Origin: Promethearchaeota archaeon
GTDB taxonomy: Archaea; Asgardarchaeota; Lokiarchaeia; Sigyniarchaeales; SOKP01
Length of the DNA stretch: 64,000 nt
Direction: 5' to 3'
NCBI GenBank assembly: GCA_019058295.1
Contig: JAHPZI010000001.1
Location: 1-64,000, forward strand
The first letter of the stretch is position 1. Each line of letters opens with the position of its first letter. The notes under the pieces were generated by a model. It had not been told where the DNA came from. It worked only from the letters and a program-made list of their open reading frames with translations, and ran no database searches. This document shows, piece after piece, positions 8,028-15,635 of this stretch. The position numbers were made by a program, and so were the translations under genes.

Positions 8028-10991
8028 TTAACCCCCTCCAATAGGAGGATATATTAATGTTATAGTTAACAAGTCAATGCCGACCTTTTCAATTTCATCA
8101 ATACCCTGTAAATCTGTTGTAATTCCCTGATTTTTCAAATTAGCAATCATTTCTTTTCGTTCATCAATAATTTTTTCCAATCTTTCCTTTGCAAATGAAT
8201 TCAACAATTTGTCAAAATTGTGAATCGCCAATGCTTTGTTTAGATGCTTCTTTAACTCAATATCCTTTTTAGAATGGTTCTCCCAATCTGCTTTCCAAAT
8301 TGACTCGATTATTTCGGTACTTAGAACCTCTCCACTAAACAAATCAATCCCAATTCTAGTGATCTCCTCCATTAAACCCTTAGGCTCAGTATTGACCAGA
8401 TACCTAATTTTTATATGAAAGACAGCTAAGGCTTTTGAAGCCTCTTTGCTAAGAAAAGCTGCGGTCCGTCCATAAAATTCATTATCCACTGCAAAAGCCT
8501 CATTTTTTACCTTTTCTACTAGACCAGAAATTAGCGGATTTTTTAAATTGACTGCTTCTATATCATTTCGTGAAGCACTGATTTCTCTATTAGGAGTGAT
8601 TAAGTATTTATCTTCAAATTTAACTCCAATATCTTTTTGAACTTGGTCGGGAAGGGTAATCTGTAGAACATCTTCCTCATCCTTTTCCTCTTCTATAGAG
8701 CCATCATATAAATCTACAGCTCTCTGAATAAAATTAAGTAGAGTATTTGTATTTCCAATTTCTTGTTCTGTTAAGAGCATCCGCTGTTCTATTTCTTCAA
8801 GGTTAATGTTATTATGACCGTAAAATGAATCTTTAACCATTTCTTCTACGTTTTTCTTTGAAAAGAAGACTGAAACGATATCTTCAATTACTTCATGTGA
8901 GAATTTGATCCATTGATCCAACGTTTTTTGAACGTCTTCACGCTTTTCTTTTCTCCTTTTTTCTGTAAGATGATCAATTACAGATTCAGGATCTCCAAAA
9001 AATCCAGGAACAAAACCATAAGCTTTTTTAATCTCATCTGCCTTATGCACTAATGCTTCTAAAATATCCATCTCCAATGTATCCTTTAAAATTAGGGTTC
9101 TAATATACACTTTTTCTTTTGGTTGACCAAATCGATCAATTCTGCCATTTCTCTGCTCTAGCCTATTTGGATTCCAAGTTAGTTCATAATTAATTATTTG
9201 ATCTGCTGAAAATTGCAGATCAATTCCTTCTGCCATGCAATCTGTAGTAATTAAAATCCCATTTTTAGACCTCAGAAAACCATCGTATACGTCTTGTCTT
9301 TTTTGTGAAGCCATTTGACCATGAACAGTGAATAAATTAATATTCTTGAACTTTACAGTATTTTGAGTCTTATTTTCTAATTTTTCTTTAATATAATTTA
9401 AAGTATCGATATATCTTGTAAAGATTATTATTTTTTTTGAGATTTTGAACCTTTCTGGGAGTATGTAATTGATTAACTGATTGATTTTATTATCTTGATT
9501 CATTAATTCAATCGCAGATCTTTTTACTTTTATCAAAAGTTCTTTTTCTTTCACTAAATCTTCTGCTTTTTTAGATAAGATTAATTTATCATTTCGTAAA
9601 TCGAGTTCTTCCTCTGTTAGCCTGTCTGTTTCATAACCATCCATTACAGATTGAGCGGCCTCCTCAGTAGAGATAAAAGAATCTGTTTCATTTATTGCTC
9701 TAAAGTTTTTATTTATTTTATTATCAAGTTCTTCTAATCTGTTTTCGACAGAGCATTTTAAAGCATTTGGAGAGCTGATTGCTCGTTTATGGAAATGCAA
9801 TATCGTCCAATAGCTAAATTTCCTTTTCTCCTCAGGATCATTTTTTCCTCTGCTGAGTACATGTTGAGAAAATTCATTTATTAACTTAAAGCACTCATAG
9901 AATTTTTCAGATGCATCGATATAAACTTCTTCGGAATCACGTTCGGGAAAAGGATTTTTTTTATATTTGCTTTTTGATAACCAATCTTCCACATCTTTTC
10001 TTCTGCGCTGACAAATATGATTTATTGCTAAATCTCTATTAATCTCAATTTCGATTTGACTTCTACCATAATTAATGATAGCAGGATTAACCATCTCGAG
10101 TAAACTAGCAAAAGAATCTTTATAACCATTATGAGGGGTTGCTGAAAGCAATAATATATGAGGATATTTCTTCTTATTAGCTAATGCTTTAGCAAAACCA
10201 TAACTTTGTTTAAATGATTTTGAGCTTTCATCATCAGAACCTAAATGGGGACGCATAACATTATGAGCCTCATCAATTACAATCATATCCCAATCAAACT
10301 GAAGTATCTCTTCTTTAACACCCGGGCGCTTTCCATAGTCTATAGACGTAATAATGAAATTATAGTAACCCCAAGGATTACCCCCAACTAAAAGTTCAGA
10401 TTCTAAATATCTGCGATTTCGACGGGACATTATTACTGCATCGATACCAAAAAAATGCTTTAAAATAGTCTGCCATTGTTCTCGAAGATTTGCCGGAGTC
10501 ACAAATAAAACTCTATTAATCCTCTTCCTTCCTAGTAATTCTTGAAGAATTAAACCTGATTCTATTGTTTTGCCTAAACCTACATCATCTGCCAATAGCA
10601 ATCTCACGTTTTTTAGATTTAAAGCCATTAAGACTGGAACCATCTGATAAGAAATCGGAATCACTTTTGAATTCTGAAGGCTAATAAAGGAAGTTGTGCT
10701 ATAAATTAAATCGAGCTTTATTGCGTCTAACAAAAGCTTTTGATAAACAGGAGAACCAATCTTTTCAGCAGACGGATTTGGAACAACTGATTTTTTAATA
10801 GGCTCAATATCTGGTATTAAAAGCTGAGTTGAAGGTTGTCCTGTGATATTACTTACAGAATAAAGGATAAATTTCTTTAATTCTTCATGAATTTCTTTTT
10901 CTTTTATGATAATTTGATCAATTCGCCATAATCTATCTCTAGCTTCCACTATTTCTCCAATCTTAAAATCAGTCTCTAAAGTCAAATTCAA
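8028..10991 (-). CDS. SNF2-family helicase, DrmD-like
   Basis: LLADDVGLGKT, DEAH, SATPH, EGIDLQ, WNPNRLEQRNGRIDRFGQ. It lies directly upstream of the MTases as in DISARM class I. TTG start. Confidence 0.88.
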   Translation of the reverse strand: MNLTLETDFKIGEIVEARDRLWRIDQIIIKEKEIHEELKKFILYSVSNITGQPSTQLLIPDIEPIKKSVVPNPSAEKIGSPVYQKLLLDAIKLDLIYSTTSFISLQNSKVIPISYQMVPVLMALNLKNVRLLLADDVGLGKTIESGLILQELLGRKRINRVLFVTPANLREQWQTILKHFFGIDAVIMSRRNRRYLESELLVGGNPWGYYNFIITSIDYGKRPGVKEEILQFDWDMIVIDEAHNVMRPHLGSDDESSKSFKQSYGFAKALANKKKYPHILLLSATPHNGYKDSFASLLEMVNPAIINYGRSQIEIEINRDLAINHICQRRRKDVEDWLSKSKYKKNPFPERDSEEVYIDASEKFYECFKLINEFSQHVLSRGKNDPEEKRKFSYWTILHFHKRAISSPNALKCSVENRLEELDNKINKNFRAINETDSFISTEEAAQSVMDGYETDRLTEEELDLRNDKLILSKKAEDLVKEKELLIKVKRSAIELMNQDNKINQLINYILPERFKISKKIIIFTRYIDTLNYIKEKLENKTQNTVKFKNINLFTVHGQMASQKRQDVYDGFLRSKNGILITTDCMAEGIDLQFSADQIINYELTWNPNRLEQRNGRIDRFGQPKEKVYIRTLILKDTLEMDILEALVHKADEIKKAYGFVPGFFGDPESVIDHLTEKRRKEKREDVQKTLDQWIKFSHEVIEDIVSVFFSKKNVEEMVKDSFYGHNNINLEEIEQRMLLTEQEIGNTNTLLNFIQRAVDLYDGSIEEEKDEEDVLQITLPDQVQKDIGVKFEDKYLITPNREISASRNDIEAVNLKNPLISGLVEKVKNEAFAVDNEFYGRTAAFLSKEASKALAVFHIKIRYLVNTEPKGLMEEITRIGIDLFSGEVLSTEIIESIWKADWENHSKKDIELKKHLNKALAIHNFDKLLNSFAKERLEKIIDERKEMIANLKNQGITTDLQGIDEIEKVGIDLLTITLIYPPIGGG

Positions 10992-11194
10992 TTCTCCTCA
11001 TCTAATATGATAATATTAAGTTTTTTGAATAATAAATTGATTTTTATTAAGATCCTATTAATCAATGATTTTAGTCCTTAATGATATTATTTTGTTATTA
11101 TAATATATAAATTTTTTAGACAATAAAGTATTCCTAAAGTTATAAATATTTAAATAATATTCATCGAAATTAATAATGCATTAAACCAAAAATA

Positions 11195-14464: not shown

Positions 14465-14537
14465 TGTATTTTATAAAATATTTTTTTTATAGGAGCTTAA
14501 ATCTTTAGATCTTTATTTTTAAGTAAATTTCATAGAA

Positions 14538-15635
14538 TTGTCATCTAAAAAAAATGCTTTTAATTGGGTTAATTTAGCAGAAAAAGGTAAAATTGAAGGT
14601 ATTGTTAGAAAAAGGTTGGAAGAGTTAAAAACTAATTCAATTAATAAATTTATTAGTGGTGATTTATCTTTAAATGAAAATAATCAAATACCTAATGAAA
14701 TTAAAGAACTGTTAAATAGCAAATTAGATAAAATAGTCTTAAATTTTTCGTTATTTACTGAAAAAGAAATTGAAGAAAAAAAAAATCAATTTTACTCAGA
14801 ATTAGAAAAAGAATTAGATTTAGTGATTAATAAGAAGGCCCTTTGTTCAATTGAATTTGAAGGGTATACATTTTATAACTTTTTTAAAGCTTTATCTTCT
14901 TTATTAGATGAAATTGAAATTGAAATTAAAGAAGACAAGTTATACGTTCTTACAATGGATCCAATTCGCATATCTACAATAGAAATAATCATTAAGAACG
15001 AATCATTCAAATTTTATAACTTGGGAAATCTTGGATTTAATTTAAGTGATTTAAAGAAAGTACTTAAATGTAAGAGCGGAGATGATTCAATTATCAGTTT
15101 AATTTTTGGAAAAGAAAAATTATATATCAAAATAAATTCAAAAAAATATAAATCGCAAATAGAACGGGAACTTAATTGTATCGATTATCATCAATCAGGC
15201 AAAATAAAAATAGATCGTCTTCACACTATTGAATATAATTGTTTTTTTGACCTATCAAAAAAGAACTTGGGATATCTAATGGATAATTTCGGTATTTACT
15301 CAGAAATTATTCATATTGAATGTTATGATAATAAAATATGCTTTATAGAATCTGGAGATTCTGGAACTAATGAGATCTCATGGGATAAGAATTCAAAAGC
15401 CAGCTATAATTTTAAATCTAAAAATAAAAATTCTAAGAATATTTTTATTCAAAATCAATGTCATGGTAACTATTCTTTAGAATTTTTTAATATGAATAAT
15501 AAAATGGCAAGTTTGCTAAATAGTTCAGATCAAATATTATTTTCAATTAGAGAAAAATATCCTTTAAAATCAGAAATAATATATGCTAAGCTCGGAGGTT
15601 CTTTTATCAGATTTTATATTTCTCCTCGAAATTAA
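14538..15635 (+). CDS. PCNA-like sliding clamp paralog with ~100-aa N-terminal extension
   Basis: From about aa 103, 'FKALSSLLDE...LTMDPIRIS...GFNLSDLKKVLKC' and the C-terminal 'YSLEFF...YPLK...IRFYISPR' match PCNA signatures (MDxxxV, GxNLxxxxKILK, YLAPR/K). Confidence 0.85.
   Translation: MSSKKNAFNWVNLAEKGKIEGIVRKRLEELKTNSINKFISGDLSLNENNQIPNEIKELLNSKLDKIVLNFSLFTEKEIEEKKNQFYSELEKELDLVINKKALCSIEFEGYTFYNFFKALSSLLDEIEIEIKEDKLYVLTMDPIRISTIEIIIKNESFKFYNLGNLGFNLSDLKKVLKCKSGDDSIISLIFGKEKLYIKINSKKYKSQIERELNCIDYHQSGKIKIDRLHTIEYNCFFDLSKKNLGYLMDNFGIYSEIIHIECYDNKICFIESGDSGTNEISWDKNSKASYNFKSKNKNSKNIFIQNQCHGNYSLEFFNMNNKMASLLNSSDQILFSIREKYPLKSEIIYAKLGGSFIRFYISPRN

Follow-up and report, generated by a model that had tools for sequence, protein, structure and literature searches.

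Introduction

Archaeal ARMADA type I was described with the gene order helicase, methylase and YprA helicase (Bell et al., bioRxiv 10.1101/2025.09.15.676423), and neither "clamp" nor "PCNA" occurs in the main text of that paper. Docking on the sliding clamp is known from other enzymes. EndoMS/NucS is one enzyme family whose archaeal members use a PCNA-interacting peptide (PIP) box and whose bacterial members use a beta-clamp motif (PMC8228993, PMC6159515), the beta-clamp consensus being QL[SD]LF (PMC9690074, PMC7049699), and in DNMT1 a PIP motif brings a DNA methyltransferase to new DNA (PMC9690074). Asgard viruses and elements encode PCNA of their own (PMC11529989; 10.1101/2021.07.29.453957), and a PCNA gene was also reported in the HrAgo2 operon (PMC11217426). 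Here a defence island of a Promethearchaeota archaeon (assembly GCA_019058295.1, a genome of 3.2 Mb and 30% GC) is described. The window, meaning the 64,000 nucleotides that were analysed, is the start of contig JAHPZI010000001.1, and the island occupies its first 30 kb with two N6 methylases (ArmB and a second ArmB-like enzyme), an SNF2 helicase (ArmA), McrB, McrC, a PCNA-like gene (xPCNA), GmrSD, and a second SNF2 helicase with its 2497-aa partner. ArmA and ArmB very probably attach to the sliding clamp of the host by way of a short peptide in a linker, and xPCNA belongs to a separate, N-extended clade of PCNA paralogues that recurs in defence islands.

ARMADA and McrBC are known, as are the extra PCNAs carried by Asgard elements. 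The literature searched, outside of which most subscription papers lie, contained no report of clamp motifs in ARMADA proteins or of a Lokiarchaeial clade of N-extended PCNAs, so that both the motifs and the defence-linked clade are apparently undescribed.

An ARMADA type I-like operon

The operon, with the order helicase–methylase–methylase–YprA, fits ARMADA type I better than DISARM, because the gene starting at position 98 of the minus strand corresponds, in related loci, to a YprA helicase that resembles the one of Druantia. ArmA is a BrxHII-like SNF2 helicase and ArmB a PglX-like N6 methylase with NPPW, present here in two copies, one with NPPW and one with NPPY. The orthologue of ArmC in a related locus, L003, is a 1774-aa helicase 3' of the methylases, closest to DruE (E 9e-123), with an MZB/DUF1998 match in the same chain. 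For a C-terminal Vsr-type nuclease of ArmC, weak DUF559 matches were seen in four of six relatives (E 0.0009-0.03, below the cut-off).

The first-pass annotation had called the system DISARM-like, and the best PADLOC matches are indeed those shared with DISARM class I, a DrmD-like helicase and a DrmMI-like methylase. The label was nevertheless dropped. In the relatives L003, L163 and L167 the DUF1998-type helicase is a single 1770-aa gene, unsplit and DruE-like, and the separate DrmB (DUF1998) and DrmC (PLD) genes of DISARM class I are absent after it; the window itself ends before this point. A BrxHII-like SNF2 helicase and a PglX-like methylase ahead of a Druantia-like YprA helicase is the arrangement given for ARMADA type I in many archaea, from which the present locus differs by its two methylases, by the clamp-docking motifs in ArmA and ArmB, and by the linked PCNA paralogue.

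Putative clamp-docking motifs in ArmA and the methylases

PIP-like matches occur in 26 proteins of the whole proteome and in 16-25 after shuffling. A single match, QKTLDQWI of ArmA included, is no better than chance, and therefore the motif had to be judged by conservation. Among 31 close homologues of ArmA the glutamine is kept in 27, the leucine in 28 and the aromatic residue in all 31, within a flanking linker that is variable and gappy. Full-length homologues with taxonomic labels (30-38% identity) divide by domain: 12 of the 14 archaeal proteins have a PIP box, Q-x-x-[LMI]-x-x-[FYW], at the same place and none has a beta-type motif, whereas 23 of the 26 bacterial proteins have a beta-clamp-type motif (QLSLF, QLRLF, PDLF or similar) and one has a PIP box. 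The background of the two patterns was 17 and 32 of 848 sequence windows, true sites included. The sole bacterial PIP box belongs to a binned protein with near-identity to one of Methanocrinis; the contig concerned (L077) is labelled Bacteroidales and was probably mis-binned. Distant SNF2 homologues with a readable linker have the motif in 3-4 of 26 cases, so it is not general to all such helicases. Members of the subfamily occur in culturable hosts too, among them a haloarchaeon and Flavobacterium. Repeated independent switching of the motif between the domains was also considered and was not borne out, since the ArmA tree needs two switches and one archaeal clade gives p-AU 0.10.

All three motifs named in the first-pass annotation lie where it had placed them (Table 1), and the two Q-less motifs of the methylases, ITTITAFM and IIHITSFI, align with each other. 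In the methylase linkers, archaeal proteins carry ITxF[FM], LTKFL or TLDQF and bacterial ones QLGLF, QPALF or QYGL, which by eye is the trend of ArmA in a weaker form. McrB has one PIP match within its N-terminal part, which is unconserved, and no PIP match was found in ArmC and McrC. The earlier proposal of clamp-tethered restriction and methylation enzymes is thus upheld for ArmA and, less strongly, for the methylases, and does not extend to ArmC and McrC. In the same genome, proteins assigned from sequence as PolB-, PolD-, FEN1- and NreA-like carry QxS/T[LI]xx[FY] at the C- or N-terminal end.

Such agreement of motif type with the clamp of the host suggests a coupling of this ARMADA subfamily to the replisome. 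The pattern recalls EndoMS/NucS, a mismatch-repair nuclease whose C-terminal motif was shown biochemically, whereas here the putative docking motif is internal and belongs to a defence helicase and methylases. The likeness to DNMT1 is one of analogy and not of homology: DNMT1 is a eukaryotic C5 enzyme, while the present methylases are of the N6 type and their motifs lack the glutamine.

Fold, pocket and N-terminal domain of xPCNA

The complete PCNA-like domain with a helical N-extension of ~100 aa, which the first-pass annotation had recognised 73 bp 3' of mcrC, is found again in the Pfam matches, where PCNA_N and PCNA_C both score above the cut-offs, and in a predicted model (pLDDT 84.5), in which N-terminal helices 10-40, 53-68 and 75-98 are followed by a complete PCNA fold. 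Foldseek aligned the model to PCNAs with E about 4e-19 and a target-based TM of 0.84-0.9. The residues of the peptide-binding pocket (D141, P142, R144, I145, P342, P363 and R364) are invariant in 16 homologues and the same as in housekeeping PCNA. Another set, C178, I208, Y246, N250, G252 and W282, is invariant in the homologues and unlike the housekeeping protein. Five of these positions, which would lie in the subunit interface of a PCNA structure, read C178/R, I208/R, Y246/E, N250/D and W282/L in xPCNA versus the host PCNA. The inner ring would carry lysines K117, K177, K241 and K322. The acidic tail is lost, and the isoelectric point (pI) is 8.4, compared with 4.4 for the housekeeping PCNA and 5.8-9.2 across the subclade. 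Loader-independent viral clamps were described as positively charged (PMC9690074), which for xPCNA is no more than a lead; no clamp-loader gene was seen adjoining it. Third codon positions are 64% identical and first and second positions 85%, which indicates purifying selection.

The N-domain of three helices, with W10 and G17 nearly invariant, occurs on the xPCNA clade and on its truncated remnants. No recognisable relatives were found: the PDB sequence search gave a best E of 0.013, VIA a best Z of 8.0 (unrelated helical bundles), Atlas 0.75, and PHROGs none.

Co-folding of xPCNA with residues 672-708 of ArmA scored 0.68, the best control scoring 0.00. The mark used was reached by 58 of 80 solved and 2 of 110 mismatched pairs, with at least 70% contact agreement between runs and a partner pLDDT of at least 53; many PCNA-PIP complexes have been solved, so the score may reflect likeness only. 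In the co-fold the leucine of the peptide contacts xPCNA residues 144-147, 342 and 360-362, the canonical pocket. Pocket and peptide thus look right, which is not proof of binding or preference.

A family of N-extended PCNAs

The housekeeping PCNA of this genome is encoded on another contig (C6), beside a primase large subunit-like gene. xPCNA does not qualify as a housekeeping Lokiarchaeial PCNA, given its 27% identity to that protein, its separate clade, its patchy occurrence and its pI. Fifteen full-length homologues at 48-71% identity were found, with ~30 more proteins having the same N-domain; the named close homologues are Lokiarchaeota, Promethearchaeota and Helarchaeota proteins, which points to an Asgard host, probably of the Lokiarchaeia. 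A midpoint-rooted tree of 61 rows, with near-duplicates and fragments excluded, was built on core columns alone. All N-extended proteins formed one clade (100/100) separate from housekeeping PCNA, and the tail-less subclade including xPCNA was supported at 100/97. Among 135 family-level genomes the close subclade is present in this one only. Truncated remnants of the family are common, occurring in several genomes, and no xPCNA was found in viral contigs; a pattern scan of GTDB did not pick xPCNA up. Taken together, the extended PCNAs look like a mobile family in which one branch became established next to ARMADA and McrBC.

The PCNAs of Asgard viruses and elements (Opia, Skoll, 10H_0; the HrAgo2 operon, PMC11217426) resemble xPCNA in being extra PCNAs on accessory Asgard DNA. 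The element-like Asgard copies that were compared, a set distinct from the published proteins themselves, differ in that they are 270-295 aa long, group with or near housekeeping PCNA, and fall outside the N-extended clade.

Further variants were noted in the family. A second subclade with a degenerate pocket lies beside methylase and SNF2 helicase modules (L054:9229-17391 and L173:773-9089), L175:10001-13278 encodes a 638-aa extended PCNA with a coiled-coil insert of ~280 aa in a loop of the C-terminal domain, and P0072 (564 aa) consists of tandem PCNA-like units, two in number.

Neighbourhood and transcription of xPCNA

Thirteen loci of the tail-less subclade with flanking DNA were compared, and defence genes neighbour xPCNA at 11 of them, so that its location in a defence island, as first read from the window, is a recurrent one. 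At five loci (L013, L071, L072, L073 and L171) xPCNA stands head-to-head with armA; in L003 it lies 3' of armC, in the window mcrBC is placed between armA and xPCNA, and in L010 armA is on the same contig. McrBC adjoins xPCNA in five cases (the window, L009, L016/17, L073 and L171). In L007 the neighbours are an OLD/GajA-like ATPase and nucleases, and for L006 and L015 a defence setting is not evident.

Two of these loci have peculiarities of their own. At L013:962-2080, where the xPCNA gene pairs head-to-head with armA and has a SIR2 gene downstream, it is broken into two reading frames. L010 and L172 are parts of one 31,651-bp contig whose left end carries xPCNA and whose right end carries an armA truncated on its 5' side, in such orientation that joining of the ends would recreate the usual head-to-head pair, possibly in a circular element; this armA is then followed by a ubiquitin-E2 fusion gene and not by a methylase.

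A T-run at 14481-14489 precedes a TATA-like sequence, GGAG[CT]TTAAAT, that is common to several xPCNA loci and probably represents the gene's own promoter. Because this element travels with the gene, xPCNA is probably its own transcription unit. Co-transcription with mcrBC, a matter on which the first-pass annotation had been undecided, is disfavoured by this element and by the loci elsewhere in which xPCNA faces mcrBC or is head-to-head with the helicase. A sigma-70 promoter scan, which is not applicable to archaea, gave results at chance level.

Features of the window

The coordinates are collected in Table 1. Just downstream of xPCNA lies a decayed prokaryotic Argonaute C-terminus (15698-15898, minus strand; PADLOC pAgo match E 2e-10, read through one stop). 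The second SNF2 helicase and its 2497-aa partner occupy 19506-30208 of the minus strand, and in L010 the same pair is found directly 3' of xPCNA. Beyond the island, 47982-55149 (minus) contains small GTPase genes of a kind usual in Asgard genomes, three in all and nearly identical (47982, 48704, 54577); 57290-58639 (plus) encodes a radical-SAM/HhH protein in which a PIP-like QTTLSTFF lies close to the C-terminal end, and the product of the next gene, 58636-59304, ends in KKLNEFL. The sole integrase of the genome sits on a contig other than that of the window.

Table 1. Positions of the ARMADA-like operon, mcrBC, xPCNA and their motifs in the window.
Feature	Position	Strand	Remarks
ArmC, YprA/DruE-like helicase, first 32 codons, continuing off the contig	1..98	-	76% identity over 29 aa to the 1774-aa helicase of L003
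ArmB / DrmMI-like N6 methyltransferase 1, NPPW	625..4635	-	
Q-less PIP-like motif ITTITAFM, methylase 1	2689..2712	-	
ArmB-like N6 methyltransferase 2, NPPY, TaqI_C specificity domain	4654..7791	-	
Q-less PIP-like motif IIHITSFI, methylase 2	6109..6132	-	
ArmA / DrmD-like SNF2 helicase, 987 aa	8028..10991	-	PADLOC DrmD E 6e-105, BrxHII E 3.7e-74
PIP box QKTLDQWI in variable charged linker of ArmA	8907..8930	-	
McrB and McrC, between armA and xPCNA; recurrent xPCNA neighbours	11195..14464	+	
T-run (possible mcrC terminator), then TATA-like element GGAG[CT]TTAAAT	14481..14503	+	pattern only; putative
xPCNA, extended PCNA paralogue, 365 aa, N-domain and PCNA core	14538..15635	+	start 73 bp 3' of mcrC
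N-terminal helical domain of xPCNA	14538..14840	+	

Proposed mechanism and alternative explanations

ArmA and ArmB would dock on the host clamp, by default the housekeeping PCNA, as NucS does in both domains (PMC8228993), a step that is well supported. ArmB could then methylate newly copied DNA in the manner of DNMT1, and ArmA would be positioned where DNA is being replicated. The island of some Lokiarchaeia seems also to have acquired a divergent PCNA from the mobile, N-extended family. This PCNA would be a second, non-mixing docking platform assembled apart from host PCNA, and may hold the PIP-bearing enzymes of the island on DNA in cases where invader DNA lacks host PCNA or host PCNA is blocked there, for example when a virus occupies it. 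Fold, conservation of the motifs, the match of motif type to domain, the clade and the neighbourhood are observed, whereas binding, ring formation, loading and any part in defence are inferred. The most likely role of xPCNA is that of an accessory clamp or docking platform, at less than even probability; the whole explanation, clamp-docked ARMADA enzymes together with an accessory clamp, is favoured tentatively, at somewhat less than even confidence. A stronger form, in which some Asgard ARMADA islands encode a private, orthogonal clamp of positive charge, able to bind invader DNA independently of the host's loader and to recruit the PIP-bearing restriction helicase and methylases, the docking principle being common to archaeal and bacterial members of this ARMADA subfamily, is rather unlikely.

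Several observations weigh against this explanation. Seven other ARMADA loci from the same taxonomic order had no xPCNA in the DNA fetched, some of their contigs being short, nor had 80 ARMADA loci from other taxa, and because related loci with the same PIP are without it in the DNA fetched, xPCNA would be dispensable. McrBC is an equally frequent neighbour, and McrC, like ArmC, is among the proteins without a PIP match. The motif patterns were defined after inspection of the alignment, and in the ArmA tree two domain switches suffice, a single archaeal clade not being rejected. Within the family, the second subclade pairs its degenerate pocket with methylase and PLD-SNF2 modules, distant members with an equally good pocket occur among metabolic or ribosomal genes, and the extended PCNA of L175 adjoins an anti-restriction gene of the ArdC type, on a 158-kb contig that resembles a mobile element and is made up of short unknown genes.

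In one alternative model xPCNA is a sink or brake that takes up PIP-bearing ArmA and ArmB and so spares unmethylated host DNA at island arrival or at forks, the family perhaps originating as a mobile-element anti-restriction protein. Its promoter-like element, its transcription divergent from armA, the intact pocket and the position of the distant member, 86 bp upstream of the ArdC-type gene, would all agree with this, as would the truncated remnants in several genomes, which imply frequent gain and loss. A pure sink, however, would have no need of a conserved interface and inner-ring lysines, and a single anti-restriction context was seen, so that the model is judged improbable. Much the same standing is given to the view that xPCNA is a mobile-element passenger in a defence hotspot, inherited with armA by linkage only, while the PIP motifs serve host PCNA alone. 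Such a passenger would be rare and patchy, as the close subclade is, with distant members in unrelated contexts, but it would hardly be kept under purifying selection, or beside the same genes through rearrangements (head-to-head with armA, after armC, after mcrC) at 49-71% protein identity. xPCNA could also act as a stand-alone defence factor, either a decoy for viral PIP proteins, as the first-pass annotation had suggested, or a poison subunit for viral clamps, in which the N-domain would block sterically or take part in signalling. It recurs beside unrelated defence genes (McrBC, OLD/GajA-like ATPase, SIR2, GmrSD, SNF2-sacsin), and Asgard viruses and elements do encode PCNA; yet the N-domain is without a recognisable effector fold or catalytic motif and the strongest link is to armA specifically, which leaves this role distinctly improbable.

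Significance

Docking of ArmA and ArmB on the clamp bears on how ARMADA, DISARM and BREX shield newly replicated DNA and find invader DNA. If the extra clamp does serve defence, a replication scaffold would have been recruited into immunity in archaeal relatives of eukaryotes, and if the clamp is private to the island, this would be a defence system with its own sliding clamp.

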